From an uncultured archaeon (GTDB lineage Archaea > Iainarchaeota > Iainarchaeia > Iainarchaeales > CSSED10-239): a stretch of 21,260 bases of DNA. The DNA lies in contig CAYXAY010000007.1 of the NCBI GenBank assembly GCA_964463155.1, positions 6,237 through 27,496 on the forward strand. The letters are read 5' to 3'. Every line of letters starts with the position of its first letter. Positions within the stretch are counted from its first letter, which is position 1. Below the pieces are notes generated by a model. That model was not told where the DNA came from. It searched no databases and saw nothing but the letters and a program-made list of their open reading frames with translations. Of the stretch, positions 1,228 through 20,462 are shown in pieces. Position numbers and translations under genes: made by a program.

Positions 1228-1335
1228 GATATAATATTAAAAATGAATAATTTATAAACCCTTTTTATCCTTAATTATATTATAGTTAGTATTATACAAA
1301 TTCTAGCCGCGCGTTGACAAAGCGCAACCGGTCAT

Positions 1336-1417
1336 GCTAGGGTTCCCAAGCGGTCAAAGGGGCTAGACTCAAGATCTAGTGCTTAGTGCTTCGCAGGTTC
1401 GAATCCTGCCCTTAGCA
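1336..1417 (+). tRNA. tRNA-Leu (anticodon CAA), class II with long variable arm, no encoded CCA
   Basis: The 7-bp acceptor stem GCTAGGG/CCTTAGC contains one G-U pair, and the discriminator is A. The D-loop carries GG. The anticodon stem is CTAGA/TCTAG with loop CTCAAGA (T33, CAA, G37). There is a 13-nt variable region. The T-arm is GCAGG-TTCGAAT-CCTGC. Confidence 0.9.
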
Positions 1418-1462
1418 TTTTCTCTTTTTTGAAAATTATTTAATTAAATGGTCTTTTAATTT

Positions 1463-4327: not shown

Positions 4328-6148
4328 ATGGCAAAATCAAGAGCAAAAGTTTATGTTAATGGTGGAATTGTTGGTTTCCACGACGACCCCGAAAAATTAA
4401 GAGTAGATTTACTTAAGAAAAGAAGAGCATTACAGATTGAACCACAGATAAATATAGCTTTTAATGAAACAACAAATGAAATCTATATCAATACAGATGC
4501 AGGAAGAGTGCAAAGACCAGTAATTGTTATTGACAAAGGACAATCAAGAGTAACACCAGAGATTGTTGAAGACTTAAAATCAAAAAAACTTTCTTGGCAA
4601 GACCTTCTAGCTAAAGGAATTGTTGAGTTTTTGGATGCTGAGGAAGAAGAAAATTCCTATATCGCATTAACAGAAGACGAAATAACTCCTGATCACACCC
4701 ATCTAGAGATTTCTGGAACAGCAATCTTTAGTATTGTTTCATCAATGATACCATTTATTGAGCATAATATGGCTGGAAAAGCAATTCATGGTGCAAAGCT
4801 TTACAAGCAGGCGATCGGGGTTCCTGCTTCAAACTATAACTTAAGATTTGACACAGAAATGCATTGCTTATATTATCCACAAAAGCCATTAGTTTATACA
4901 AGAACGTCAAGATTACTTCATATGGAAAAAAGACCAATGATACAAAATGCAATTGTTGCAATCATGCCTTACAAGGGTTTTAATATGCTTGATGCTTTCA
5001 TAATTAACCAAGGGGCAATACAAAGAGCAATGTCAAGATCATCATATTACAGATCATACTCACAATCTGAAACCAGGTATCCTTCTGGACAAACAGACAA
5101 ATTCTGTATACCTACAGAAGACGCAAGTGGATTTAGAGGAGAACGCGCTTATGCTAATCTTGATGAAAACGGAATAATCAATGTTGAATCAAAGATATCA
5201 GAAGGTGGAGTAGTTATTGGAATGACATCTCCTCCAAGATTTGTTGAAGAAGTTTCAGAGTTTGGAGTTGTTACAGAAGAAAGAAGAGACACTTCTGTTT
5301 GCTCAAGAAAACACCTTGACGGTTTTGTTGACAGAGTAATGATTTCAGAAACAATTGCTGGAACAAAGCTATGTAAGGTTAGAATTAGAACATACTTAGA
5401 GCCACAGGTTGGAGACAAATTCACAAGTCATCATGCGCAGAAAGGTGTTGTTGGTGCCGTGATTAAAGAAGAAGACATGCCTTTTACAGCAAACGGAATA
5501 AAGCCAGACTTTATTTTAAACCCACACTCAGTCCCTTCAAGAATGACTCTTGGTCACTTGTTTGAAACAATAACAGGAAAGACTGTTGCAGCAAGTGGAA
5601 AAACAATTGATGGTACTGCATTTTGCAACGACAAAAATGAAATTTTTAAATTACTTCAAGAATATGGTTTTAGACCTGATGGTAAAGAAACATTTTATGA
5701 TGGGAAGACTGGAGAAAAAATAGAAATGCCAATATTTGTTGGTCCTCTTGGTTTTGAAAGACTTCAAACACACTTAGTTGTTAACAGAATACAAGCAAGA
5801 GACAAAGGTCCAGTACAATTATTAACAAGACAACCAACTGAAGGAAAACAAAAAGGTGGAGGACTAAGGTTTGGTGAAATGGAAGGCGAAGCTTTAGTTG
5901 CCCACGGTGCAGCAATGACGCTTCAGGAAAAGCTAATGGAAGATGCAGACGAAATGAACATCATGGTTTGTGAAGACTGTGGAATACCAGCAGTTGACGA
6001 TAAGATAAGAAACAAGAAGTTCTGTCCAGTATGTAATGGAACAAATGTTCACCAAGTAAAGATTAGTTATGGTTTCAAATTACTTCTTGACGAACTAAAA
6101 GCAATGGGAGTATATCCAAAATTAGTACTTGGAGATAAAATAGATTAA
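4328..6148 (+). CDS. rpoB1: DNA-directed RNA polymerase subunit B' (C-terminal half of split Rpo2)
   Basis: Motifs PSRMTLGHLFE and GGLRFGEMEGEALVAHGAA, plus the C-terminal zinc ribbon CEDCG...CPVCNG. Confidence 0.95.
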   Translation: MAKSRAKVYVNGGIVGFHDDPEKLRVDLLKKRRALQIEPQINIAFNETTNEIYINTDAGRVQRPVIVIDKGQSRVTPEIVEDLKSKKLSWQDLLAKGIVEFLDAEEEENSYIALTEDEITPDHTHLEISGTAIFSIVSSMIPFIEHNMAGKAIHGAKLYKQAIGVPASNYNLRFDTEMHCLYYPQKPLVYTRTSRLLHMEKRPMIQNAIVAIMPYKGFNMLDAFIINQGAIQRAMSRSSYYRSYSQSETRYPSGQTDKFCIPTEDASGFRGERAYANLDENGIINVESKISEGGVVIGMTSPPRFVEEVSEFGVVTEERRDTSVCSRKHLDGFVDRVMISETIAGTKLCKVRIRTYLEPQVGDKFTSHHAQKGVVGAVIKEEDMPFTANGIKPDFILNPHSVPSRMTLGHLFETITGKTVAASGKTIDGTAFCNDKNEIFKLLQEYGFRPDGKETFYDGKTGEKIEMPIFVGPLGFERLQTHLVVNRIQARDKGPVQLLTRQPTEGKQKGGGLRFGEMEGEALVAHGAAMTLQEKLMEDADEMNIMVCEDCGIPAVDDKIRNKKFCPVCNGTNVHQVKISYGFKLLLDELKAMGVYPKLVLGDKID

Positions 6149-6165
6149 GTTTATGGGTTGATAAG

Positions 6166-8757
6166 ATGAACACATCAAAGAAAATAAAAAGCATTGAATT
6201 TGGAGTATTAAGTCCAGAGATGATTAGAAAGATGTCTGCTGTTGAAATCTCAAGAGCAGAAACTTACGACAAGGACGGTTATCCTATTGAAAGAGGACTA
6301 ATGGACCCGCACCTTGGAATTATTTCTCCGGGTTTGAGATGTAAGACATGTGGACAGACAATGAAGAATTGTCCAGGCCATTTTGGTTCATTAGAACTGA
6401 TTAGACCAGTAATTCATCCAAAGTTTGGTGAAAAGCTTTACTATGTTCTTGCGTCAACCTGTCAGGAATGTGGAAGAATGCTTCTTGATGATGAGGAAGT
6501 AAATGAATTGATGTTGATCTCTGAAGACACAGACAAATGCGTTAAAGAAATACTTAACAGAGTAAAAGGCGAAAAAAAATGCCCACATTGTAAAGCAGCA
6601 GTTAACAAAATAGCTCTTGACAAACCAACAAATTTTTTCAAAAACGGAGAAAGACTTTATCCTGCCGAAATTCTTGATTGGTTAGTAAAGATATCAGACA
6701 AAGATCTTTTCTTGTTTGGTTATTCAGACAAACTAAAACCACAATGGTTTATTGTTACTGTTCTTCCAATATCTCCAGTTTCAATAAGACCATCTTTGTC
6801 TTTAGAAAACGTAATAACTTCTGAAGATGATCTAACTTACAAATTGCTTGACATTGTTAGAATAAACACGAGATTACAAGAAAACATTAATGCTGGAGCT
6901 CCACAGATAATCATTGAAGACCTTTGGGATCTTTTACAATATAACATAACCACTTATATTGACAACAACACCGCGGGCGTTCCACCAGCAAAGCAAAGAT
7001 CAGGAAGACCACTTAAAACAATAGCTCAAAGACTAAAAGGAAAGAAAGGAAGATTTAGATATAACCTTATTGGTAAAAGAGTAAACGCCTCCGCTCGTTC
7101 AACAATCACACCATCTGTTGATATCAAATTTAATGAGCTTGGTATTCCAGAGTATGTTGCAAATACTTTAACTGTTCCTGAAAAGATAACTGCTTGGAAC
7201 AAAGAAAAAATAAAAGACTATATACTTAAAGGAAAAGTAAGTTATCTTCTAACAGAAAAGGGACTAAGAAAAATAATAACTCCTGAAAACAGAGAAGAAC
7301 TTGCAGATACAATAACAGAAGGAATGACTGCAAAACGAAAATTGCAAGACGGAGACATCGTAGTATTCAACAGACAGCCAACTCTTCATAGAATATCAAT
7401 GATGGGGCATTATGCAAAAGTCCTTCCTGGAAGAACATTTAGACTAAACCCAATAACCTGTGATCCATACAATGCTGATTTTGACGGTGACGATATGAAT
7501 CTTCATGTTCCTCAAAGCGAAGAATCATATGCTGAAGTTAAAGAGCTTATGGTTGCAGACAAACATGTTATAAGTATTAGAAACGGAAAGCCAGTTATTG
7601 CTCCAGACCATGACCTTCTTTCAGGAGCCTATCTATTAACAAGAGTATCAACTGAATTTTCCAGAAAAGAAGCAATGAATATGTTATATTCTATCGGCAT
7701 AACTGAACTTCCAACAGCAGACAGAGGAAGAGGATATTATTCAGGAAAACTACTGTTTAGCCAAATACTTCCAAAAGGACTATCAATTGCTTACAAGAAC
7801 AAGCTTTGTGGTATTGTTTCAAAAGCAAAAGACTGTAAAAAATGTAAAAAAGAAAAATGTGCTTACGATTGTTATCTTAAGATAGAAAAAGGGAAAATTC
7901 TTTGCGGAGTAATTGATGAAAGAATTGGTTCACACAAAGGCCTTATTGAAACAATCTATAGACACTTTGGAGCAGAGGAATTAACTGAATTCTATTATAA
8001 GTTTTCAAAACTAGTGTTCTTTGCAATAAACAAACAAGGTTTGACTGTTGCTCTTGACGAATACAAGGCAGGCGAAGAACTACAAAAAGAAATAAGAGCA
8101 AAAGTAAAAGGAATGATGGCAAGTTCAAATGCAATCATTAAGAAATTTGAAGACAGAAGCTTACAATTAATACCAGGGAAAAACCTTGAAGAAACATTTG
8201 AAAGCGAGATATTAAATGTTACTGGCGAAATGAAAGAAAAGATATCAGATAAGATTCAAGAATTAAAGCTTGAAGAGCTTATGTCAGAAACAAAGAAATC
8301 AAACAACAACACAATACTAGTTGCAAGTATTGGCGGGGGTCGTGGAAGATTACTAAATGTTGTTAACATGCTGGGACTTTGGGGGCAAGTAACTGTTAGA
8401 ACAGGAAGACCAAAAGCAGGATTTTCAGAAAGACTATTAAGTTTAAGTCCAAAAGGAACAAACCAAGTAATTGATTTTGGATTTGTACAAAGCAATTTCT
8501 TTGATGGAATGAATCCAAGAGAATATTTCATACACGCTATTGGCGGAAGACAAGGTGAAATAGACACCGGTGTTGCAACTAAAGTTTCTGGTTATCTTTA
8601 CAGAAGACTATCAAATGCACTTAAAGACCTTGTTGTTAATGATGAATTAAAAGTTACATCGGCTGATGGTCAAGTAATACAATTTATGTATGGAGAAGAC
8701 GGTCTTTCCCCAGAAAAAGCATATCTTGGAAAGAACATAAACTTTTTCAATGAGTAA
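6166..8757 (+). CDS. rpoA1: DNA-directed RNA polymerase subunit A' (Rpo1N)
   Basis: N-terminal zinc sites CKTCGQTMKNCPGHFG and CQECG...CPHCK, then NRQPTLHRISMMGH and the catalytic YNADFDGDDMNLH. Confidence 0.95.
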   Translation: MNTSKKIKSIEFGVLSPEMIRKMSAVEISRAETYDKDGYPIERGLMDPHLGIISPGLRCKTCGQTMKNCPGHFGSLELIRPVIHPKFGEKLYYVLASTCQECGRMLLDDEEVNELMLISEDTDKCVKEILNRVKGEKKCPHCKAAVNKIALDKPTNFFKNGERLYPAEILDWLVKISDKDLFLFGYSDKLKPQWFIVTVLPISPVSIRPSLSLENVITSEDDLTYKLLDIVRINTRLQENINAGAPQIIIEDLWDLLQYNITTYIDNNTAGVPPAKQRSGRPLKTIAQRLKGKKGRFRYNLIGKRVNASARSTITPSVDIKFNELGIPEYVANTLTVPEKITAWNKEKIKDYILKGKVSYLLTEKGLRKIITPENREELADTITEGMTAKRKLQDGDIVVFNRQPTLHRISMMGHYAKVLPGRTFRLNPITCDPYNADFDGDDMNLHVPQSEESYAEVKELMVADKHVISIRNGKPVIAPDHDLLSGAYLLTRVSTEFSRKEAMNMLYSIGITELPTADRGRGYYSGKLLFSQILPKGLSIAYKNKLCGIVSKAKDCKKCKKEKCAYDCYLKIEKGKILCGVIDERIGSHKGLIETIYRHFGAEELTEFYYKFSKLVFFAINKQGLTVALDEYKAGEELQKEIRAKVKGMMASSNAIIKKFEDRSLQLIPGKNLEETFESEILNVTGEMKEKISDKIQELKLEELMSETKKSNNNTILVASIGGGRGRLLNVVNMLGLWGQVTVRTGRPKAGFSERLLSLSPKGTNQVIDFGFVQSNFFDGMNPREYFIHAIGGRQGEIDTGVATKVSGYLYRRLSNALKDLVVNDELKVTSADGQVIQFMYGEDGLSPEKAYLGKNINFFNE

Positions 8758-9960: not shown

Positions 9961-10034
9961 TTTATAATATTTTTGTAGCTAAAATATATTAGTAATTCTA
10001 TTCAAAGTAAATAAAAAAGGAAAGTGAAAAAAAT

Positions 10035-10601
10035 ATGAATTGGACAAGATTCAATCAGGAAGTAAGAAACGCAATAGATACAGGAAACATAATTATAGGA
10101 GCAAATCAGGCAAAAAAGGAATGTCTAATAGGAGAACCTAAACTATTAATTGTAAGTTCAACAGTTGACCCTCAAAACAGGGATTTGTTTAGACATTATG
10201 CAAAATTGCTTGGAATAAACCTAATAGAATATCCAGAAGGCAGTAATGAACTTGGCTCTGTTTGTGGGAAACCGTTTGGAATATCAATTATTGCAATTAT
10301 TAATGAGGGAAAATCTTCCATCTTAGAAGTAATTACTGAAAAAGATTTTGAGAAAAAAGAAGATAAAAAATTAATTGCAAAAAAAGCTAAAAAAGAAGAA
10401 AAGAAAACAGCTAAGACTACAAAGAAAACAAAGAAAGATGCTGATGAAGACTTTTCGGAAGACGAATTAACTTCAAAGAAGAAAAGAGACGCAAAAAAAG
10501 GTCCGAAAGTAAAAGAAGAGAAAAAAGAAGAAGAGGAAAATAATATTCCAATAACTGAAGATAAGATGTTTAAGGACATTATCAAGATAAAGAAAAAATA
10601 A
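10035..10601 (+). CDS. rpl30e: Ribosomal protein L30e with a ~90-aa Lys/Glu-rich C-terminal extension
   Basis: The first ~100 aa fit archaeal L30e (AIDTGNIIIGANQAKK...LGSVCGKPFGISIIAIINEGKSSILEV), and the position after rpoA2 is canonical. The remainder is a K/E/D low-complexity tail. Confidence 0.8.
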   Translation: MNWTRFNQEVRNAIDTGNIIIGANQAKKECLIGEPKLLIVSSTVDPQNRDLFRHYAKLLGINLIEYPEGSNELGSVCGKPFGISIIAIINEGKSSILEVITEKDFEKKEDKKLIAKKAKKEEKKTAKTTKKTKKDADEDFSEDELTSKKKRDAKKGPKVKEEKKEEEENNIPITEDKMFKDIIKIKKK

Positions 10602-10622
10602 ATTTAATTAAGGTGAAAAATA

Positions 10623-11048
10623 ATGGCAAATGGAGAATTTTCAGCAAGAAAATTAATAAAGGACAGAAAGAAATGGACAAAGAAAGACCCAAGAAACAAA
10701 AGAAAACTAAAGGTTGACAAGAAAGCAGGACTTATGAGGGGGGCACCTCAAGCAAGAGGAATTGTTCTTGATAAGAAAGGAATTACTGCAAGACAGCCAA
10801 ACTCTGGTATTAGAAAATGTGTAAGAGTTCAGTTGATTAAGAATGGTAAAGAACTTACTGCGTTTGCTCCAAAAGACAAAGCAATCAAGTTTATTGATGC
10901 ACACGACCAAGTTACTGTTGAAGGTATTGGTGGAAGAAAAGGCGGACCTATTGGTGATCTTTGGGGTGTGAGATATAAGGTTGTTAAGGTTAACGGTCAA
11001 TCACTTGAAATGTTAAGAAAAGGTAAAAAAGAAAAGACAAAGAGATAA
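10623..11048 (+). CDS. rps12: Ribosomal protein S12 (uS12)
   Basis: [26 protein letters not shown]...[22 protein letters not shown] Shine-Dalgarno upstream. Confidence 0.95.
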
Positions 11049-11066
11049 ATTTAAAAGGGATAAAAA

Positions 11067-11666
11067 ATGAAATTATTTGACAAATGGGAAACAAAAGGAA
11101 TAAACTTCAAAGATGTTGGTCTTTCTAAATACCTGAATTTAGAAGACAAGGTCATACCACACACATTTGGTGCAACAAACAAAGAACCTTCCAGAAAAAC
11201 GAAAATCAATATTGTTGAAAGACTGGTAAACAAGATGATGAGATCAGGACAAGGAAAGAAAAAGCTTTCAGGTAAATATGTAAGACACAGAATGGGTTGT
11301 GGAAAGAAAGAACAGATGTTAAAAGTTGTTGAAGAGGCATTTAATCACATACATAAAGTAACAAAGGAAAACCCAGTTCAAGTTCTTGTCACAGCTGTTG
11401 AATACTCAGCACCTAGAGAAGACATTACTAAGCTTCAGAAAGGAGATATCACTTACACGCAATCAGTTGACTTAGCTCCAATCAAGAGACTTGACGAAGC
11501 ACTAAAGAATATTGCTCTTGCGGCCTTTAAAAACACATACAAGAACAAAAAAGAACCAGCAGCAGCATTAGCAGAAGAAATAATAGATGCTTCAAAAAAC
11601 GACCAAAAAAGCTTTTCTGTAAAAAGAAAAGACGAAATAGAAAGAATTGCACAAGGTTCAAGATAA
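11067..11666 (+). CDS. rps7: Ribosomal protein S7 (uS7)
   Basis: Archaeal-length S7 (199 aa) with the C-terminal KRKDEIERIAQGSR-type ending, immediately after S12. Confidence 0.9.
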   Translation: MKLFDKWETKGINFKDVGLSKYLNLEDKVIPHTFGATNKEPSRKTKINIVERLVNKMMRSGQGKKKLSGKYVRHRMGCGKKEQMLKVVEEAFNHIHKVTKENPVQVLVTAVEYSAPREDITKLQKGDITYTQSVDLAPIKRLDEALKNIALAAFKNTYKNKKEPAAALAEEIIDASKNDQKSFSVKRKDEIERIAQGSR

Positions 11667-11692
11667 ATTAAAAAGGAACCTTCTTCATTCTT

Positions 11693-12598
11693 TCAATTTT
11701 TTTTATAAAAATATTCTTTAATCTGTATTTTACAATTATCTAAATGGCCTAATAAAATCTTCTTTAAAATAAATATTATAAAATTGATGTATACCCTGGC
11801 ATTTTTTTTTAATTTGCACAAATCACATAGCGGTAAATATTTCCTATATTCTAGCCCTCTCGATAATCTCTTATTGTGTGATAAATATAATTCCCAAGTA
11901 AAATTACTTGGGTGTGGGTAATTGCATATACAAAGTGGAACATTTTCTAAAAAAACTTTTTTTATATTTAATTTTTTTATTTTAGCCAAGTAATGTTTTG
12001 TTATAGGGAGTGATACAATTTCTTTTTTACAATAATCTTTTTTAAAATTATAGAAACGAGGGTATGAAATTCTAATTTTATTTAAATATGGAAAGGTAGT
12101 ATTTAGCCAAATAATCATTTCACTTAACGTTTTATAATTGTGTTTTGTGATCACCGTGTTTGTACTAACTTTTATGTGCTTCTTAAACTGTTGGAATATA
12201 GATAACGCATTAAGTGCCACATAAAAACTATTTTTATTTTGTGAAATTTTTGAAAAGGTGGTGCGATTATGTGAATGAAAAGATATTTTAAATTCAGTTA
12301 TGCCTGCTGCAATTAATTGAGACACATACTCTTTAGTAAAGTTTGTTCCATTTGTCTCAATCAATATATTTTTATAGTAATGTTTAGCATATTTAACTAT
12401 TTTTAATAAATCTTCGTGTAAGGCGGGTTCCCCACCAGTAATAGTGATACGCGAAAAATTATTATTTAATGTCCTGTCTATATCTTTATATATTTCTTTT
12501 AAGGTGGGTTCGGGATTATAATGTTTGTTTACCGAACAAAAAATACAATTATTCAAACATTTTCCAGTAATGTGTATTTCTACTTCTTTCATCAACAA
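11693..12598 (-). CDS. Radical SAM enzyme (MoaA/PqqE-like core), possible C-terminal auxiliary Cys motifs
   Basis: CxxxCxxC at the N-terminus (GKCLNNCIFC), a GGEP motif (ITITGGEPAL) and ETNGT. C-terminal Cys pairs are PLCIC and PLCDLC. The gene is very AT-rich, convergent on rps7 and divergent from the 12733+ operon. Confidence 0.8.
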   Translation of the reverse strand: MLMKEVEIHITGKCLNNCIFCSVNKHYNPEPTLKEIYKDIDRTLNNNFSRITITGGEPALHEDLLKIVKYAKHYYKNILIETNGTNFTKEYVSQLIAAGITEFKISFHSHNRTTFSKISQNKNSFYVALNALSIFQQFKKHIKVSTNTVITKHNYKTLSEMIIWLNTTFPYLNKIRISYPRFYNFKKDYCKKEIVSLPITKHYLAKIKKLNIKKVFLENVPLCICNYPHPSNFTWELYLSHNKRLSRGLEYRKYLPLCDLCKLKKNARVYINFIIFILKKILLGHLDNCKIQIKEYFYKKN

Positions 12599-12721
12599 TC
12601 ATCAATAATAATATTTGTTAATATTATTGTATTAAATAATATTAAAAAACCGATAGGTTATTAATATTATATTAAATAGATAGCGTGAATTTTTTATTGT
12701 AAAAAATAATCAACTGATGTC

Positions 12722-12729
12722 TTTATAAA
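12722..12729 (+). promoter_or_regulatory. TATA-box-like element (TTTATAAA) for the + strand island operon
   Basis: It lies in the divergent intergenic region. A transcription start about 25 nt downstream would favour the internal ATG at 12769 as the start of the small ORF. AT-rich context makes this weak. Confidence 0.3.
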
Positions 12730-12732
12730 TTA

Positions 12733-12909
12733 ATGGGAGCCAAAGCATTATTATATGGCGGTTTTATTATGGGTGATAATATCAATTTAAATCAAAATAA
12801 ACTTCAAAATCTAGAAAAAGAAAAGCAATTTTCAATACACAGATTACCAATTACTGCTAGAGAAAAGAAAGGCATTTTTGAAGCGTGGGCAGAATCTAGT
12901 GATTTATAG
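12733..12909 (+). CDS. Candidate precursor peptide / small ORF (58 aa; alternative in-frame start 12769 gives 46 aa)
   Basis: Hand-translated and below the ORF-track size cutoff: MGAKALLYGGFIMGDNINLNQNKLQNLEKEKQFSIHRLPITAREKKGIFEAWAESSDL. It ends 7 nt before the PqqD-like gene, in the precursor position of pqqA/mftA-type clusters. It has no Cys and no family match that I can assert. Confidence 0.3.
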   Translation: MGAKALLYGGFIMGDNINLNQNKLQNLEKEKQFSIHRLPITAREKKGIFEAWAESSDL

Positions 12910-12916
12910 ATTGCTT

Positions 12917-13165
12917 ATGAAAAAGATAATAGTTAAAAATAAAGAATTTTGGTATCGACAAGAAGAAGATTTATTTATTTTATTTGAAAAATCTAATTAT
13001 TATTATTTAGTTACTGGGCTAATTATATTTATTTTAGAAGAATTATCTCAAAATAGGGATTTAAATACAATTACTGCAGAAATTAAAAAAAAATATGATA
13101 TTGATGTGTCTATTGAATTTTTATTGCAAAAATTAAGCGAAATTGAAGGTTTAACAATATGTTAA
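12917..13165 (+). CDS. PqqD-like RiPP recognition element (RRE) protein, 82 aa (ATG start preferred over track TTG 12878)
   Basis: Size and pattern resemble PqqD/MftB: a short beta-strand region (WYRQEEDLFILFEKSNYYYLV) followed by helices (IIFILEELSQNRDLNTITAEIKKKYDIDVSIEFLLQKLSEIEGL). Its stop overlaps the start of the downstream rSAM/SPASM gene (ATGTTAA). Confidence 0.5.
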   Translation: MKKIIVKNKEFWYRQEEDLFILFEKSNYYYLVTGLIIFILEELSQNRDLNTITAEIKKKYDIDVSIEFLLQKLSEIEGLTIC

Positions 13166-14148
13166 AATATTTTAAAACTCCGCTGTTTCCGAGTATTGAT
13201 TTAAGTTCAAATTGTAATTTACAGTGTATTCATTGTAGAAACGACAAAACAAAAAACACTAAAATAGATTACAATAAGGTTATTGATTTAGTTGATGAAT
13301 GTGAACGATTAGAGGTTTTTCATCTATCTTTTGCAGGAGGAGAGCCGCTTTTATATCCTCAGATTTATGATTTGCTAGATTATGTCCAAAAATTAAATAT
13401 CCCCAAAATTACAATAGTTACAAATTGCACCATTTTAAATAGAGAGAAGTTAAAATCATTAGATAAATCAAAAATAAGATTTGCAGTAAGTTTAGATGGA
13501 CCAAGAGAAATACATAATAAAATAAGGGGGGCAAATATCTTTGATAATGTAATTAGTAACATCCAATTCTTATTATCTGAAGGATACTATGTTTTTTTAA
13601 GTTGTACTTTAATGAAACAAAATTATAAATATTTTGATGACATAATACAAATTGCTAAGGATATTAAAGTTAATCAAATAAATTTTTCAAAAGTTTTTCC
13701 AGTACATCCAGAGATATTATATTTTATGTTATCAAGGTTGGATTTAGAAGAATTATATAAGAAATACCAGAAATATTCCGATGAAAAAGATATTATAATT
13801 TTTTTAGATAAAGGGTATATGGGATTTCCTGAAGAATATAAAACAGATGTTTCTTTTGCTATGGGTTGTAGGGGCGGTATATCTCAAATAAACGTATTAT
13901 CAGATGGTTCTGTTGTGGGCTGTAAATTATTGTCTAATGTTATTGCAGGGAATATTTATAAAGAGAACTTGGAAAATATTTGGAAGAATGATAAAAATTG
14001 GACATTGTTTCGTAATATAGATGAAAATATAGAAAATAAAAAATGTAATTCTTGTAAATATTTTAGTGCTTGTCGCGGTGGTTGTAGAGCCTATACTTAT
14101 TATATTACTGACAGTTTCTATAAAAAAGATCCATTATGTCCGTTGTGA
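13159..14148 (+). CDS. Radical SAM / SPASM-domain peptide-modifying maturase
   Basis: N-terminal CNLQCIHC (CxxxCxxC) and AGGEPLL. The C-terminal SPASM signature is GCRGG...DGSVVGC followed by CNSCKYFSACRGGC (C-x2-C-x5-C-x3-C) and a terminal DPLCP. Confidence 0.85.
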   Translation: MLKYFKTPLFPSIDLSSNCNLQCIHCRNDKTKNTKIDYNKVIDLVDECERLEVFHLSFAGGEPLLYPQIYDLLDYVQKLNIPKITIVTNCTILNREKLKSLDKSKIRFAVSLDGPREIHNKIRGANIFDNVISNIQFLLSEGYYVFLSCTLMKQNYKYFDDIIQIAKDIKVNQINFSKVFPVHPEILYFMLSRLDLEELYKKYQKYSDEKDIIIFLDKGYMGFPEEYKTDVSFAMGCRGGISQINVLSDGSVVGCKLLSNVIAGNIYKENLENIWKNDKNWTLFRNIDENIENKKCNSCKYFSACRGGCRAYTYYITDSFYKKDPLCPL

Positions 14149-14152
14149 GAGC

Positions 14153-15805
14153 ATGTCTAAATATACTATAAGTGAAATAATAATTTTTTTCTTGAAATTA
14201 CAGAAAATAAAGTGTGTTTTTGGAGTGCCTGGTTCTAACATGGATTTTTTGAATTATATTTCAAAAAATAACAAAATAGAATTTATATCAAATAAAGAGG
14301 AAAAAAATTCAGTATATATGGCAATGGGATATTCTAAAGCATCTAATAATGTAGGTTGTTGTTTTGCTAGTTTAGGACCAGGAGTTTTTAATTTAATTCC
14401 AGGAATCATTTCAGCATATTATGAATCTACGCCTATATTAGTTATTGGGGGACAAAACTCTGCAATAAATTTTGGGCAAAATGTATTTCAAGAGGCCTCC
14501 GGAAAATCTAGAACTGTAAGTCAGATTGATCAGTTAAAAAAAATCACACTATATTCTGTAATAATTGATCCTAACAAAATTTATTTGCAATTATCTTTAA
14601 TCCATAAATATTTGCATTGTTCTAGACCAGGGCCGGTATATTTAGAATTTCCGCAAGATTTAATGAACTTAATTATAGATTTTAATGAAAATAAACTCCG
14701 AAATATTTTAATAAAACAAAATAAAATTACATCTAAACAAAATCACAAAATAAACCTGAAAACAATGAAATTATTGTGTAAAGAAATTTATTGTGCTAAA
14801 CACCCAGTATTTATAATTGGTGGAGGCGCAAAAAATGTTAAAAATTACATTAAGATTTCGGAACATTTTTCAATACCAATTGTAACAACATTTAAAGGAA
14901 AAGACAAAATTCCAAATAATTCAAAAAACTATTTGGGATGTATTGGTTTGATTGGGGCGCAGAGTACAAATAGGTACATATTTAATTCTGATTTGATAAT
15001 TGCAATAGGAACTAGTTTAGGACAATTTTCTACAGATAATTGGAAAATCATTTCTCCTCACAGTAAAATATATCGCATAGATATTTATACAACGGATTTA
15101 ACTAAAAATTATTTGTCCAATTTAATTCAATGTGATTTATTTTATTTTTCAGAGGTGTTTTCTAAAGAAATGCACCTATTTAAAAAGAACAAATTAGAAA
15201 TAAATATACGGAAAAACGAAATATTAAAAGTAAAATCCGAAATAGATAAAGAAATTAATCCTAAAAAAACAAATTCTAATAAAATAAAATTTATTAAACA
15301 ATTAAGGAAAAAACTGCCTAAAAATGCGATCGTTGTTAACGAAGATATTTTTTTAATTGGGAAATATTTCCCTTTTTTTGAAGAGAATACAAATCTCAAT
15401 TTCACTAATCTAGCGCCCATAGGGTGTGCTTTGTCTGGTGCCATAGGTGCAAAAATTGCAAAACCTAACAAAACAGTGGTCGTTGTGTTAGGCGATGGTG
15501 GATTTAATATGTCTATATCTGAATTAAATACTATTTTTAATTATAATATAGATTTGTGCATTTTTATACTTAATAATTGTTGTTATGGAGTAGTATATAA
15601 ATATCAAAAATATAAATTTCGGGAATCATTTTATACAGAATATAAGAACCCCGACTATAAGAAATTAGGAACATTGTACGGTTTCAAAACCCAAATTCTA
15701 AATAATGGAAAACTAAGAAATATTACTCAATTTAATAAAAGTGATAGGTTATTATTTAATATAATTATTGACAAGGATGAAAAGATGAATATAAAAATAT
15801 ATTAA
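14153..15805 (+). CDS. Thiamine-diphosphate-dependent enzyme, acetolactate-synthase-like three-domain architecture (550 aa from ATG 14153; track start 14066 overlaps the upstream gene)
   Basis: The N-terminal PYR domain reads FGVPGSNMDFLNY...KEEKNSVYMAMGYSK...GPGVFNLIPGIISAYYESTPILVIGGQ. The central domain reads PVFIIGGGA...IPIVTTFKGKD. The C-terminal ThDP motif is LGDGGFNMSISELNT...ILNN. It starts 4 nt after the SPASM stop. Confidence 0.8.
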   Translation: MSKYTISEIIIFFLKLQKIKCVFGVPGSNMDFLNYISKNNKIEFISNKEEKNSVYMAMGYSKASNNVGCCFASLGPGVFNLIPGIISAYYESTPILVIGGQNSAINFGQNVFQEASGKSRTVSQIDQLKKITLYSVIIDPNKIYLQLSLIHKYLHCSRPGPVYLEFPQDLMNLIIDFNENKLRNILIKQNKITSKQNHKINLKTMKLLCKEIYCAKHPVFIIGGGAKNVKNYIKISEHFSIPIVTTFKGKDKIPNNSKNYLGCIGLIGAQSTNRYIFNSDLIIAIGTSLGQFSTDNWKIISPHSKIYRIDIYTTDLTKNYLSNLIQCDLFYFSEVFSKEMHLFKKNKLEINIRKNEILKVKSEIDKEINPKKTNSNKIKFIKQLRKKLPKNAIVVNEDIFLIGKYFPFFEENTNLNFTNLAPIGCALSGAIGAKIAKPNKTVVVVLGDGGFNMSISELNTIFNYNIDLCIFILNNCCYGVVYKYQKYKFRESFYTEYKNPDYKKLGTLYGFKTQILNNGKLRNITQFNKSDRLLFNIIIDKDEKMNIKIY

Positions 15806-15816
15806 AAAGATTACTT

Positions 15817-16125
15817 ATGAAATATAAAATAGACTATATAGTTGAAGGCAACTTTTCAGGCCCTATAAAAATAATAGATTCTTCTTATGATTATAAATTA
15901 GTTTGTGAGGGAGATGTCTTATTAATTAAAAAACCAAATCCAGACATCGTTTTAAGTTTTGGAAAAATTACTGGTATAATATCTGAAGTAGGCGGGAAAT
16001 TATCTCATATCGCGATTGTTTCAAGAGAGAATAATATCCCTTGTGTCAGATTAGAAAATGCAACAAATATTTTAAAAAACGGAGTTGTAATTTCAGTTCG
16101 TGATGGTTTTATATATGTTAAATAA
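15817..16125 (+). CDS. Stand-alone PEP-utilizing-enzyme mobile (phosphohistidine swivel) domain protein, 102 aa
   Basis: GDVLLIKKPNPDIV...GIISEVGGKLSHIAIVSRENNIPCV...NGVVISVRDGFIYV matches the GG-x-(T/S)-SH-x-AI-x-(A/S)-R-E-x-x-IP swivel-domain signature with the catalytic His. Confidence 0.8.
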   Translation: MKYKIDYIVEGNFSGPIKIIDSSYDYKLVCEGDVLLIKKPNPDIVLSFGKITGIISEVGGKLSHIAIVSRENNIPCVRLENATNILKNGVVISVRDGFIYVK

Positions 16126-17122
16126 TGAATTATTTATAAAAATAGGCAAAGATCTGAGTAGAATTCAAAAAGGTGGAGGAATTGATACTCAATGGCCATT
16201 TGTATTGCCAGATTTTGAAATCTCATTTGGAGAAGATATAATAAACCATTTAAACTTTGTTTTATGTAAATTTTTAAACACACACACAATAGATGATGCG
16301 GCAAATTTATTGAAATGCCCTTCTAAAGTCTCGCAATATATTTTATTAATTCATAGCGCTAAACACCTAAATAAAAAAGATAGAAAAAAGTTAATTTTAA
16401 CATTAACCAGTATTTTAAAAAAATTAAGAAAAAATTATCTTTGTGAAAACGGGACTAATCAACTTAACAATTTTGATTATAAAAATTATTTAAATCACAC
16501 ACAATTTACAAAAGAAGATACCAAAAAAATTAATCAATTGTCTAGCACCCTTTATGCTTATTTAGAAAAATTATATCCCACGATGATGCGATTAGGATTT
16601 GAATATCATGGACCATATATTTATAACAATAAAAAATATATTTTTAAGGAATATTTTGATTTAAACAACAATTATATACCTAACTGTAAAATAGATTATA
16701 AAAATATTAAAATAGTTTATGAAATAGATAATGACGTGTATGTAGACTTTTTTGGACACATATATGGCGATGGCAAAACAAAAGTTGTAGGTTTATATAT
16801 AGATGGTAATAAAATAAGCGATATTACAGAGGTGTTTAATAAAATAAAAGACATTTATGAATATCAAAAGTCTTTATTTTTAAACTATAATTATAAAGAT
16901 TATGCAAAAAATTTAGTATTTGGCATATTTTTTTCTTTAAAACCCATCTGCGATAAAATCGGGGTAGATTGGAAACCTCGCAAAAATGTTATTGAAAAAA
17001 CTAAAAATTTTAAATTAATTTTTCCTTTAGAAAATGTATTAAATAAAATACATCAAACACCTACAGAAGATTTAGAAAGAAAAATCACAAAAAGCTTTTC
17101 TGAAATATTTGATGATAAATAA
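16115..17122 (+). CDS. Hypothetical protein (~335 aa), N/K/Y/I-rich, no recognisable motif
   Basis: Long open frame whose ATG at 16115 overlaps the upstream stop by 11 nt (the track gives a GTG at 16100). It lacks the PEP-utilizer C-terminal TIM-barrel signature (no G-[ST]-N-D-L). Confidence 0.6.
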   Translation: MLNNELFIKIGKDLSRIQKGGGIDTQWPFVLPDFEISFGEDIINHLNFVLCKFLNTHTIDDAANLLKCPSKVSQYILLIHSAKHLNKKDRKKLILTLTSILKKLRKNYLCENGTNQLNNFDYKNYLNHTQFTKEDTKKINQLSSTLYAYLEKLYPTMMRLGFEYHGPYIYNNKKYIFKEYFDLNNNYIPNCKIDYKNIKIVYEIDNDVYVDFFGHIYGDGKTKVVGLYIDGNKISDITEVFNKIKDIYEYQKSLFLNYNYKDYAKNLVFGIFFSLKPICDKIGVDWKPRKNVIEKTKNFKLIFPLENVLNKIHQTPTEDLERKITKSFSEIFDDK

Positions 17123-17176
17123 CAAAAATATGTATATTATATTCTATTTTTAAAGTTTCTTTTTCTATAATTATAT

Positions 17177-18121
17177 ATGTCTTATATTAGATTCTTTAAA
17201 GACCTTACAAAAGACTCAGTAAGCATGGCTGGCGGAAAAGGCGCATCTCTTGGAGAGATGAACAATTATGGTTTTCCAATACCCTATGGTTTTGTTGTTG
17301 TTTCTTTAGCCTTTGAAGATTTTATTAAAGAAAACAAAATTGGTTCGAAAATAAAAGAAATATTAAAAACAGTAGACACAAACAAATCAGACACCTCAGA
17401 AAAAGCATCAAAAGACATTGAAAATCTAATTTTAAATGGTGCACTAAATAAAGATTTAGAAAAAGAAATACTAGATTCTTTTAAGCAATTAAATACAGAA
17501 TATGTTGCAGTAAGGTCAAGCGCCACAGCAGAAGACTCCTCAAGTGATGCTTGGGCAGGTCAACTTGATTCATTTCTTAACACTAAAGAACAGAATTTAT
17601 TAGAAAATGTAAAAAAATGCTTTGCTTCTCTTTTTACTCAAAGAGCAATTGTTTACAGAATTGAAAAAGGACTACTTGATAAGAAAATATCGGTTGCTGT
17701 TGTTGTTCAAAAAATGGTTAATTCTGAGAAATCCGGAATTGCTTTTTCAGTTAATCCAGTAACTAACGATTACTCACAAATGATAATTGAAGCAGGATAT
17801 GGTCTTGGAGAAGCCATTGTTTCTGGGCAAATTACTCCCGACAGTTATATTGTCTCAAAAACACACGAAATCTTGGACAAACACAAGGGCACTCAAAGTA
17901 AAGCATTATATCGCTCACCAGACGATCAAGGAAATATTTGGAAAGAAATCACAAATGAGAAATCAGAACAAGTTTTATCTGATAATCAAATAATTGAATT
18001 ATCAAAAATAATTGATAATATTGAGAAACACTATACCTTCCCAGTAGATGTAGAGTGGGCTATTGAAAATGGAAATTTTTACATTCTCCAAAGTAGGCAA
18101 ATAACGACATTAAAAAAGTAA
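17177..18121 (+). CDS. PPDK_N-type ATP-grasp (nucleotide-binding) domain protein of the PEP synthase / pyruvate phosphate dikinase / rifampin phosphotransferase superfamily, 314 aa
   Basis: MAGGKGASLGEMNNYGFPIPYGFVV...YVAVRSSATAEDSSSDAWAGQLDSFLN...VAVVVQKMVNSEKSGIAFSVNP...EAGYGLGEAIVSGQITPD...VEWAIENGNFYILQSRQIT. It has no swivel or TIM-barrel domain. It has its own TATA-like TTTTTAAAG about 25 nt upstream, and its base composition resembles the core genes. Confidence 0.85.
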   Translation: MSYIRFFKDLTKDSVSMAGGKGASLGEMNNYGFPIPYGFVVVSLAFEDFIKENKIGSKIKEILKTVDTNKSDTSEKASKDIENLILNGALNKDLEKEILDSFKQLNTEYVAVRSSATAEDSSSDAWAGQLDSFLNTKEQNLLENVKKCFASLFTQRAIVYRIEKGLLDKKISVAVVVQKMVNSEKSGIAFSVNPVTNDYSQMIIEAGYGLGEAIVSGQITPDSYIVSKTHEILDKHKGTQSKALYRSPDDQGNIWKEITNEKSEQVLSDNQIIELSKIIDNIEKHYTFPVDVEWAIENGNFYILQSRQITTLKK

Positions 18122-18263
18122 TATATATAAACCATTCTTTACTATATTATATATTAGATATAGTCTATTTTTTTAAGTATTCAAGTGACTTGAAAAAGAC
18201 CTTTTGAGACTATAGCTATCTTTAGAATATTAATTATAAATCATAACTAAAAATGGAGAAATT

Positions 18264-20462
18264 ATGGGACGAAAAGAACTAGTTGCAGAACTTGCACAAA
18301 AATTAATGAGTAATACTAAAAATATTAGAAATATTGCAATCATTGCACATATTGATCATGGAAAATCAACATTAACTGATAACCTTGTAGCAACTGCAGG
18401 TCTAATCTCTAAAGAACTAGCAGGACAACAAGTATTCATGGATTCTTATATCCTTGAACAAGAAAGAGGAATTACAATCAATGCCTCAAACGTTTCTGTT
18501 CCTTGTGAGATTAATGGAGAGAAGTTTTTGGTAAATATTATTGACACACCAGGACACGTTGACTTTGGTGGAGATGTTATTAGAGCAATGAGAGCTGTTG
18601 ATGGAGCAGTCTTAGTTGTTGATGCTGTTGAAGGAGTTATGCCTCAGACAGAAACCGTTTTAAGACAAGCATTAAAGGAAAGAGTTAAACCAGTTCTTTT
18701 CATTAACAAAGTTGACAGATTAATAACTGAAATGAACGTTGCTCCAGAAGATATGCAAAAAAGATTTATTAAAGTTGTAATGGATATTAATAACTTGATT
18801 GCAAAAAACGCAGCAGAAGAATTTGCACAAAAATGGCAAGTAAATATTAAAGATGGTTCTGTATGTTTCGGTTCAGGATATCACAACTGGGCATTATCGG
18901 TTCCAGCAATGACTAAATACAATATAAAGTTTAGTGATATTGTTGATTACTGTAAAAACGAAAAACAAAAAGAACTTGCACAAAGAATACCAGTAAGTGA
19001 AGTTTTCTTAGAAATGGTTTCACAGCATTTACCAAATCCAATGGAATCACAAAAATACAGAATTCCAATTATCTGGGGTGGAGACTTAGAAACACCAGAA
19101 GGAAAAGCAATGACTGAATGTAATCATTCAGAAAACAACATTGCAATGATGGTCACTGACGTTGTTCTTGACAAACACGCAGGAGACATAGCTTCAGGGA
19201 GAATATATACAGGAACTATAAAGAAAGGGATGGACTTAAATGTTCTTGGCGCAGACAAAACTGCTAAAGTTCAGCAAGTTGGTATTTACTTAGGTCCCGA
19301 AAGAGTTATATTAGATGAAGTTGTAGCCGGTAACATTGTTTGTGTTATTGGTATGAAAGAAGTTTATGCAGGACAAACATTATCAAATAAAGAAATAAAA
19401 CCATTTGAAAGCTTTATGTCAGATGTTGAACCAGTAATGACTGTTTCAATTGAAGCAAAGAACAGCAAAGATCTTCCAAAACTAATCGAAGTTGTTCACA
19501 ACATCACAAAAGAAGACCCAAACATTAGAGCTGAACTAAACCAAGAAACAGGAGAGCACTTGATTTCGGGTATGGGTGAACTTCATTTAGAAATTACTCA
19601 ATATAAGATTGAAAAAGACAATAATATTCCAATAACTGTTAGTCCGCCAATTGTTCTATATTACGAAACAATACAAAAAGCATCACCAACAATTGAAGGA
19701 AAATCACCAAACAAACACAACAAGTTCAAGATTTCTGTTGAGCCTTTATCAGAAGAGATGCTTGCAAAAGTTAGAGCTATTAAGTTTGATGGAAGAATCA
19801 GAATAAACAAAGATGTAGAAATACAAAATAAATTTGTTGATGCTGGTTTTACAAGAGATGAATCAAAAAATATCTGGGCAGTTCATAACAATTGTATATT
19901 GATTAACAGAACAAAAGGTATTCAAAATCTGTTTGAAACAAGAGAACTTGTAATTGACGCATTCATGGATGCAACAAAGGAAGGACCAGTTGCAAAAGAA
20001 AAGGTTTCAGGAATAATTGTAAATCTTGAAGATGCAACTCTTCACGAAGATGCTATACACAGAGGTCCTGCTCAAGTTCTTCCCGCAATCACTAGAGCAA
20101 TATGGGCTTGTGTTCTTTCATCTGATTATACATTGTTCGAACCAAAGCAAAAACTTTCTGTTTCTGTTCCGCAAGACTTTATGGGTTCAGTTAACAGAGT
20201 TCTTGCAGGCAGAAGAACACAGATTGAAAGAATTGATATGGAAGGAGAATCCTGTATTGTTATTGGTAAGATTCCAGTTAAGTCATTAATTGGTTTAAGC
20301 CAAGAGATGAGAGGAGAAACCCAAGGAAGAGCAATTTGGACAGCAGAATACGCTGGTTATGAAAAATTACCAAAATCCATTCTTATGTCAACCATCACAG
20401 AAATAAGAACAAGAAAAGGAATGGAACCGGAGCCAAAGCCTGCAGAATTCTTCATGGACTAG
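18264..20462 (+). CDS. fusA: Translation elongation factor 2 (aEF-2)
   Basis: G-domain motifs AHIDHGKST, DTPGHVDF and NKVDR. The diphthamide-site region is HEDAIHRGPAQV. Length is 732 aa, with a GGAG Shine-Dalgarno upstream. Confidence 0.95.
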   Translation: MGRKELVAELAQKLMSNTKNIRNIAIIAHIDHGKSTLTDNLVATAGLISKELAGQQVFMDSYILEQERGITINASNVSVPCEINGEKFLVNIIDTPGHVDFGGDVIRAMRAVDGAVLVVDAVEGVMPQTETVLRQALKERVKPVLFINKVDRLITEMNVAPEDMQKRFIKVVMDINNLIAKNAAEEFAQKWQVNIKDGSVCFGSGYHNWALSVPAMTKYNIKFSDIVDYCKNEKQKELAQRIPVSEVFLEMVSQHLPNPMESQKYRIPIIWGGDLETPEGKAMTECNHSENNIAMMVTDVVLDKHAGDIASGRIYTGTIKKGMDLNVLGADKTAKVQQVGIYLGPERVILDEVVAGNIVCVIGMKEVYAGQTLSNKEIKPFESFMSDVEPVMTVSIEAKNSKDLPKLIEVVHNITKEDPNIRAELNQETGEHLISGMGELHLEITQYKIEKDNNIPITVSPPIVLYYETIQKASPTIEGKSPNKHNKFKISVEPLSEEMLAKVRAIKFDGRIRINKDVEIQNKFVDAGFTRDESKNIWAVHNNCILINRTKGIQNLFETRELVIDAFMDATKEGPVAKEKVSGIIVNLEDATLHEDAIHRGPAQVLPAITRAIWACVLSSDYTLFEPKQKLSVSVPQDFMGSVNRVLAGRRTQIERIDMEGESCIVIGKIPVKSLIGLSQEMRGETQGRAIWTAEYAGYEKLPKSILMSTITEIRTRKGMEPEPKPAEFFMD

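Follow-up and report, generated by a model that had tools for sequence, protein, structure and literature searches.

A free-standing phosphohistidine swivel protein, an undescribed 335-residue protein family and an ATP-grasp protein in a DPANN archaeon: a candidate three-component dikinase-type phosphotransferase

Three adjoining genes on the forward strand of a 21,260-nucleotide stretch of DNA from an uncultured archaeon of the Iainarchaeota (contig CAYXAY010000007.1 of assembly GCA_964463155.1, positions 6,237 to 27,496; this whole stretch is called the window here) are the subject of this report. They lie in an island between the genes for ribosomal protein S7 and elongation factor 2 (EF-2). 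The first (15817-16125) encodes a free-standing phosphohistidine swivel protein of 102 aa (PF00391, E 1.4e-14); the second (16115-17122) encodes a 335-aa protein of an undescribed family, characterized by AlphaFold2 modeling and profile search and proposed here as an acceptor-binding or catalytic module; and the third (17177-18121), after a 54-nt spacer, encodes a free-standing ATP-grasp (PPDK_N) protein of 314 aa (PF01326, E 1.5e-95), the proposed charger of the swivel histidine. An earlier analysis made from the letters of the DNA (hereafter the sequence-only reading) had delimited the same genes, including the 54-nt gap and an 11-nt overlap between the first two (16115 versus 16125), and had described them as a dismantled dikinase. 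We agree with its coordinates and with the count of three genes, but the locus is better read as a modular assembly, in which a swivel and 335-aa pair that was probably imported stands beside an ATP-grasp gene that is probably resident in the lineage.

The 102-aa protein is a complete PF00391 swivel domain on its own, with no further domain, and its catalytic histidine, His64 (codon 16006-16008, motif GGKLSHIAIVSRE), lies within GGKLSH, which bears out the earlier description of a free-standing swivel carrying its catalytic residue. The histidine of the GGxx[SC]H motif is invariant among the free swivel proteins that adjoin a partner gene in loci L001-L026. A word-indexed homologue search with the 102-aa sequence gave three matches. 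Its best NCBIfam and PDB matches are to the swivel region of phosphoenolpyruvate (PEP) synthase (NF005057, 1.2e-15), the rifampin phosphotransferase (RPH) structures 5fbs and 5hv1 are matched at 7.8e-9, and a leucine occupies the place, before the catalytic histidine, of the regulatory threonine of PEP synthase.

The gene for the 335-aa protein opens at ATG 16115, with an 11-nt overlap with the end of the swivel gene; a GTG at 16100 need not be invoked because homologues begin at the same methionine. By sequence, the protein has no match in Pfam, NCBIfam or the PDB, nor was a relative found when 59 family members were compared with Pfam and the family profile with PDB sequences. The word "orphan" used by the sequence-only reading is thus apt for annotation libraries but not for sequence space, where the word-indexed search yields six close homologues at 33-100% identity and an exhaustive search by profile yields 251 representative clusters (149 with E<=1e-10), nearly all of them free-standing proteins of 320-385 aa. 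The 59 members share 16-71% identity and a motif E-[FY]-H-G-P-Y, and W27, P28, P69, N115, E151, E163, H165, G166, Y168 and D211 are near-invariant among them; such conservation of N115, E151, E163, H165, Y168 and D211 suggests an active site or ligand site rather than a scaffold. A confident AlphaFold2 model from a six-sequence alignment (pLDDT 87.9, pTM 0.89) shows a bundle of helices at the N terminus, an antiparallel sheet of six strands and further helices at the C terminus, with no beta/alpha barrel. Foldseek searches with this model found nothing at E<=0.001 in BFVD or in the PDB (best TM about 0.2), which as searched includes RPH (5fbs/5hv1), PEP synthase (2ols, 8a8e) and pyruvate phosphate dikinase (PPDK), and PF02896 (PEP-utilizers_C) matched neither the middle protein nor any other gene of the island. 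Because the predicted fold and the Foldseek and profile searches reveal no relative, the 335-aa protein, as modeled, is neither a TIM barrel nor a rifampin-binding-like domain. The earlier claim that 16115-17122 encodes no TIM barrel therefore stands, there being no PF02896 match, a non-barrel model and no Foldseek match to PEP synthase (PpsA) or PPDK.

How general the association of these proteins is was assessed at 71 loci with a member of the 335-aa family, which came from homologue look-ups, one scan of species-representative genomes and one metagenome scan, the scan alignments being narrower than the 59-sequence set; the loci were annotated with local hidden Markov models and grouped at 70% identity into 48 lineages. 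A free swivel gene of ~100-125 aa lies directly upstream on the same strand in 45 of the 48 and directly downstream in one (L075), so that a free swivel gene adjoins the family gene in 46; L018 carries the swivel in the same polypeptide, and L057 is the sole lineage without one. The matched regions of the two proteins abut or overlap in most lineages, and the called genes overlap by 8-32 nt. The pair is a conserved unit, almost obligate and translationally coupled, and at L023 it stands alone beside toxin-antitoxin genes. Those family-bearing genomes that have names are from DPANN archaea (Nanoarchaeota, Micrarchaeota, Pacearchaeota and Iainarchaeum), and at least one locus is bacterial (L019).

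Fusions tie the pair to the ATP-grasp domain. Protein P0103 (796 aa) consists of PPDK_N (49-289), swivel (323-392) and 335-aa-family domain (460-767); its first 400 residues align to positions 95-462 of the 798 of PEP synthase, and the 335-aa-family domain occupies the position of the pyruvate-binding barrel. This fusion, in PEP-synthase order, points to a functional link of the three modules, and together with the pairing in 46 of 48 lineages and the missing barrel it supports the relay, from ATP through a phosphohistidine to an acceptor held by a non-TIM module, that the sequence-only reading had put forward. The bacterial P0152 (789 aa, L019 7667-10370) joins an unassigned N-terminal region of 330 aa to a swivel and a 335-aa-family domain, and a second free swivel gene upstream of it places two phosphocarrier domains in one operon. 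P0067 is a fusion of the 335-aa-family domain with a HAD phosphatase. In a Micrarchaeota metagenome-assembled genome (MAG; L012 2099-3964), the family protein and a radical SAM enzyme resembling HxsC form a single 621-aa open reading frame (ORF), whether fused in nature or joined by a fault of the assembly; L009, L013 and L014 have them as two overlapping genes.

Phosphohydrolases are the other recurrent neighbors. A Lactamase_B_2 protein (metallo-beta-lactamase fold, ~300 aa) overlaps the pair downstream in L035 (5732-6667), L040 (9131-10087) and L049 (9122-10021) and abuts it upstream in L045 (393-1226), and in this ~370-aa branch of the family it is likely a third component or a product hydrolase. 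His_Phos_1 adjoins the pair in L064 and Metallophos in L065 and L019 (weak Pfam matches), so that four phosphohydrolase superfamilies in all are repeatedly represented among the neighbors and fusion partners of the 335-aa-family protein. Their recurrence argues that a phosphorylated molecule is made, and also that the pair is a general cassette rather than a device specific to peptides that are made by ribosomes and modified after translation (RiPPs). A RiPP-specific role, suggested earlier from the gene neighborhood in the window, accordingly fails as a general function, as most family members lie in non-RiPP contexts, often beside phosphohydrolases.

The ATP-grasp protein matches PF01326 over its full length (profile positions 2-313 of 328). 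Its best matches are residues 5-339 of PEP synthase (NF005057, 1.4e-96) and PDB entry 8a8e; RPH-type references follow (5fbs/5hv1, E about 8e-55; NF041857, 1.5e-75, and NF052631, 3.1e-68, both under their curated cut-offs). Similar free-standing proteins of ~314 aa number more than 7000 at E<=1e-30 and are very common in DPANN archaea and in the candidate phyla radiation (CPR/Patescibacteria); among the best 120 of these matches nearly all are 311-330 aa long, at 57-77% identity. Composition sets this gene apart from its two neighbors, as the sequence-only reading had noted: the swivel gene (GC 0.278, GC at third codon positions [GC3] 0.165) and the middle gene (GC 0.235, GC3 0.173) are AT-rich, with GC3 of about 0.17 in both, whereas the ATP-grasp gene (GC 0.320, GC1 0.432, GC3 0.213) has values like those of the core genes on either side. 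An 11-mer that may be an archaeal TATA box, CTATTTTTAAA, lies on the forward strand at 17144-17154, 22 nt before the ATG, and it recurs unchanged in L003, where the spacer has otherwise diverged. The TATA-like element that had been ascribed to this gene is thus present and conserved in L003, but is suggestive only in so AT-rich a genome; from its sequence it is possible that it serves as the gene's own promoter for a separate leaderless transcript, a weak argument in a region of 25% GC.

Linkage between the ATP-grasp gene and the pair is seen in 9 of the 48 lineages. The gene is downstream on the same strand in the window and L003, divergent in L001, convergent at 35 nt in L038, directly upstream in L037, L053 and L055, and 1.1-1.4 kb upstream in L017 and L041; in L018 it is fused. 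Where at least 2.5 kb is available on both flanks, 5 of 16 lineages have it, far above expectation for a single-copy gene, while its absence from the vicinity in the other 11 shows that the linkage is facultative.

Elsewhere, the usual partner of a free PPDK_N protein is a downstream protein of 474-501 aa with a C-terminal swivel (L027-L033, of which L030-33 are from Woesearchaeota). A phosphatase often stands next to the two genes, of the His_Phos_1 kind in L027 and of the Metallophos kind in L030. What this widespread two-component dikinase of PPDK_N and a ~480-500-aa protein does appears to be undescribed; its layout is the one proven for HpeHI, CreHI and PpsAB (PMC12167813). The genome with L027 is closely related to that of the window organism (S12 96%, EF-2 93% and S7 91% identical). 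Its S7-EF-2 junction (4657-6564) holds no island, only a gene for a periplasmic-binding protein, but 1.2 kb downstream of EF-2 there is a 77%-identical ATP-grasp gene, followed by the gene for a 477-aa PF00391 swivel protein. In this region of L027 (8863-9948 on the reverse strand and 10001-12372 on the forward strand), the ATP-grasp gene has this partner on one side and, on the other, a divergent operon composed of two unassigned ORFs (126 and 159 aa) and a second free swivel protein of 92 aa, a layout that hints at one ATP-grasp serving several swivel clients. The 335-aa-family profile matched neither these two ORFs nor the N-terminal regions of the 477/501-aa DPANN partners at E<0.01, and in a BLAST comparison of the N-terminal 330 aa of P0152 with the 477/501-aa partners similarity was confined to the swivel. 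Because of the 77%-identical gene in L027, the core-like composition and the TATA-like box of its own, the window's ATP-grasp gene is probably a resident of the lineage, to which the pair was added by import; the earlier suggestion that the partners have different histories is strengthened by this relative, which keeps the ATP-grasp and a 477-aa swivel protein without the island.

Judging from sequence, we consider it on balance probable that the trio is a three-component phosphotransferase of the dikinase type, passing phosphate from ATP to a histidine and on to an acceptor, with a new acceptor domain. The ATP-grasp protein would bind ATP and transfer phosphate to His64 of the free swivel, a step for which PEP synthase and rifampin phosphotransferase draw on the beta-phosphate, with AMP and Pi as products. 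The phosphorylated swivel, presumably made in fixed ratio with its partner by way of the overlapping genes, would dock on the 335-aa protein, which would bind the acceptor and catalyze transfer from the phosphohistidine, probably through E151, E163, H165, Y168 and D211. The 335-aa protein would thereby replace the pyruvate-binding TIM barrel of PEP synthase or the rifampin-binding domain of RPH, and the separately transcribed, probably resident ATP-grasp would serve the pair and possibly further swivel-bearing clients. The identity of the domains, the catalytic histidine, the coupling of the genes, the spread of the family, the fusions and the lack of known acceptor folds are observed; the direction of phosphate flow, the stoichiometry, the docking site and the nature of the acceptor, a pathway intermediate, are given here as we infer them.

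Certain observations weigh against this proposal. No ATP-grasp gene is near the pair in 11 of the 16 well-flanked lineages (L014, for example, has none at +-8 kb); in such cases the donor could be something other than ATP, or an ATP-grasp encoded at a distance in the genome could act. The 335-aa protein could be a scaffold or regulator and not the acceptor site, a thought raised by the radical SAM fusion in L012. One could also envision a self-sufficient pair, in which a high-energy phosphate donor, whether PEP-like or some other phospho-metabolite, is bound by the 335-aa protein, which charges the swivel histidine without an ATP-grasp, the phosphate then going to another client or, in reverse, through an ATP-grasp to make ATP. 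There is precedent in Enzyme I of the PEP-dependent sugar phosphotransferase system (PTS), whose C-terminal domain charges its His domain from a phosphate donor, and dikinase chemistry is reversible in principle, reversibility being established for PPDK. The 11 lineages without a nearby ATP-grasp, along with L014, L040 and L049 at +-8 kb, are in keeping with such a pair, and some loci (L019, L065/66 and L072) have beside the pair a second swivel-bearing protein of the sort that a relay would need. However, P0103 keeps the full PEP-synthase order with an intact ATP-grasp, linkage to the ATP-grasp gene recurs in nine lineages, the near-ubiquitous free ATP-grasp genes of DPANN and CPR organisms could act in trans, and no donor is identified by any of the evidence; we regard a self-sufficient pair as unlikely.

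The resident-looking ATP-grasp pairs in L027 with a different, 477-aa swivel protein, and its adjacency to the pair in the window could be partly fortuitous. Taken to its end, this argument makes the ATP-grasp gene a mere neighbor, belonging to a resident two-component dikinase whose ~480-aa partner with a C-terminal swivel is encoded elsewhere. The same pairing in Woesearchaeota L030-33, the core-like composition, the conserved TATA-like box and the more than 7000 similar free ATP-grasp proteins all fit with this, and the possibility raised by the sequence-only reading, that the gene is a neighbor of fusA unrelated to the island, holds insofar as it is resident near fusA and belongs to a large DPANN/CPR family. 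It does not hold for the lack of a relationship, since elsewhere the gene is linked to the pair. No ~480-aa partner was seen beside the ATP-grasp gene in the window, L003, L001, L017, L037, L038, L041, L053 or L055, where flanking sequence exists, and nothing recognizable lies downstream of EF-2 in the window, so the 477-aa partner is not there either. In those loci the ATP-grasp gene instead abuts the pair, the P0103 fusion is contradictory as well, and nine lineages in which a one-per-genome gene lies no more than about 1.4 kb from the pair far exceed what chance would give, all of which makes a purely incidental ATP-grasp improbable in our estimation. Least credible, and very improbable indeed, is an ordinary split PEP synthase/PPDK or RPH/HpeH-type dikinase whose acceptor domain has diverged past sequence recognition. 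Strong matches of the ATP-grasp and the swivel to PEP synthase and RPH models speak for it, as do the known two-component versions of the RPH type, but there is no PF02896 match, the model (pTM 0.89) is a helical bundle with an antiparallel sheet, Foldseek returned nothing from the PDB at E<=0.001 (TM<=0.2), the 59-sequence profile has no PDB or Pfam relative, and in the 477/501-aa DPANN partners it does not match the acceptor region at the N terminus.

The surroundings of the trio in the window are an archaeal RNA-polymerase/ribosomal-protein region with genes for the rpoB and rpoA subunits, L30e/L7Ae, S12 and S7 (11067-11666) and EF-2 (18264-20462). The genes for S7 and EF-2 are normally adjacent; here a very AT-rich island of 6.4 kb separates them (junction 11667-18263), comprising genes for an HxsC-like radical SAM enzyme, a precursor peptide, a PqqD-like protein, a radical SAM/SPASM enzyme, a thiamine diphosphate (ThDP) enzyme and the trio. 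Core genes have a GC content of 0.30-0.37 and the island genes outside the trio 0.22-0.27. The HxsC-like protein (11693-12598, reverse strand; PF04055, 5.6e-20) is a second radical SAM enzyme without a SPASM domain, and its match to TIGR03977 (HxsC, 7.4e-23) is under the cut-off. On the forward strand follow a PqqD-like peptide-chaperone protein, that is, a RiPP recognition element (12878-13165), with matches to PF05402 (E 0.0058) and NF050069 (WgkC-like, E 1.6e-4) that are both under curated cut-offs and with a true start that is probably the methionine at 12917; the radical SAM/SPASM maturase (13159-14148; PF04055, 4.1e-21; PF13186, 2.7e-9); and a ThDP-dependent enzyme of 550 aa with three acetolactate-synthase-like domains (14153-15805; PF02776, PF00205 and PF02775), which is under every NCBIfam equivalog cut-off. 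The longest ORF of the ThDP enzyme opens at GTG 14066 and would overlap the radical SAM/SPASM gene by 83 nt, but we place the start at ATG 14153 because homologues are 549-554 aa long. Homologues of the PqqD-like protein in L014 and L017 also have PqqD matches. A tRNA-Leu(CAA) gene (1335-1418, forward strand), lies upstream of the RNA polymerase operon; no other RNA family was detected in the window.

A small unannotated ORF on the forward strand (12769-12909), absent from the gene list of the sequence-only reading, is conserved upstream of the PqqD-like gene and encodes a 46-aa precursor peptide that ends ...LPITAREKKGIFEAWAESSDL / GIFEAWAESSDL and contains the motif E-x-W-x-E. It has counterparts in L003 (1937-2077, ending FEAWAESSDL), L006 (1052-1195, FEAWVENNDI), L009 (3662-3760 on the reverse strand, AEFWVESD), L013 (AEFWVESD), L014 (11060-11158 on the reverse strand, AEFWIESD) and L017 (13528-13677 on the reverse strand, REMWGEGST), and these E-x-W-x-E cores, as sequences, suggest a Trp/Glu-centered radical SAM modification in DPANN archaea; no described RiPP or cofactor class matching such a precursor was found. 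The island has the features of a RiPP-type cluster: a short precursor with a conserved core, a PqqD-like protein (a weak match in a conserved position) and a radical SAM/SPASM enzyme. A ThDP gene directly precedes the swivel gene and its partner in L003, L006, L008, L009, L012, L013 and L014. ThDP enzyme, swivel, 335-aa-family protein and HxsC-like radical SAM enzyme form a block in L009, L012, L013 and L014, with the radical SAM/SPASM gene, PqqD-like gene and precursor on the opposite strand, and L003 and L006 show the collinear form. The pair would here have been recruited to a RiPP-like pathway in which a ThDP enzyme and two radical SAM enzymes accompany the precursor and a PqqD-like chaperone, and for the subfamily in this context it is most plausible that the pair works within the peptide-derived pathway, with a pathway intermediate as acceptor; that the conserved Glu carboxylates of the precursor are activated as acyl phosphates is speculation. 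Two of the loci call for separate comment. In a Pacearchaeota MAG (L015 5890-10251), the ThDP, 335-aa-family and HxsC-like radical SAM genes are each broken into several frames, and the cluster looks decayed or affected by assembly errors. The L013 contig (CAZBZG010000295.1) is binned as "uncultured Planctomycetaceae bacterium", but its cluster is near-identical to the DPANN-type L009/L008 and the contig is probably misbinned.

The known dikinases of the PEP-synthase/RPH type have one or two chains and two kinds of acceptor domain, and the present locus would define a third acceptor family, without a Pfam model or solved relative, of about 250 clusters mostly from uncultivated organisms of DPANN/CPR type. 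Many "hypothetical" gene pairs would become interpretable, and a testable role would fall to the free-standing ATP-grasp genes that abound in ultra-small archaea and bacteria. A search of the literature found no described three-component system, free-standing PF00391 protein or comparable DPANN RiPP cluster; a layout with the phosphohistidine carrier on a polypeptide of its own appears to be new, and a DPANN RiPP-like pathway that combines phosphotransfer with a ThDP enzyme and two radical SAM enzymes is without a described counterpart. A bolder idea, which we find tempting but rather doubtful, is that the free swivel is a diffusible phosphocarrier and that one resident ATP-grasp charges interchangeable clients, in a PTS-like relay of DPANN and CPR organisms. 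If so, the clients would be the common ~480-aa partner and the swivel with its new-fold acceptor protein, moving between genomes as a cassette; the 335-aa family would be a new class of phosphohistidine-dependent phosphotransferase, and its task in the window would be to activate a peptide intermediate with Glu and Trp for chemistry that depends on ThDP or radical SAM.

Compared with known systems, the trio is closest in its recognizable parts to PpsA and PPDK, with which it shares the ATP-grasp (PF01326) and the swivel (PF00391, GGxxxH), PpsA being the best match, the domain order as seen in P0103 and the presumed chemistry from ATP through a phosphohistidine to an acceptor. It differs in having an unrelated new fold in place of the PF02896 TIM barrel, in a leucine for the regulatory threonine of PpsA, and in consisting of three ORFs with stop codons where PpsA is a single chain (NCBIfam score of 324 versus a 598-bit cut-off). 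RPH and PigC/RedH use the same chassis of ATP-grasp and swivel on a secondary metabolite, for phosphorylation or activation, but each is one polypeptide in which the ATP-grasp comes first, a substrate domain second and the swivel last, and Foldseek detected no relationship between this substrate domain and the 335-aa protein. The swivel is homologous to the N-terminal His domain of PTS Enzyme I and resembles HPr in its logic, as a small phosphohistidine carrier between separate catalytic partners; however, the trio has no PEP-binding barrel, HPr fold or EII components, and its donor is probably ATP and not PEP. Two-component dikinases, namely HpeHI, CreHI and the phenylphosphate synthase PpsAB, have been proven by biochemistry to act in trans (PMC12167813), and they resemble the trio in having a separate ATP-grasp chain, a swivel histidine phosphorylated in trans and no TIM barrel (PMC12167813), as well as a non-pyruvate acceptor, which is presumed for the trio. 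In contrast to these enzymes, which carry the swivel and a rifampin-binding-like acceptor domain in covalent fusion (about 600 aa) (PMC12167813), the trio has three components, a free 102-aa swivel and a different fold in its candidate acceptor protein.

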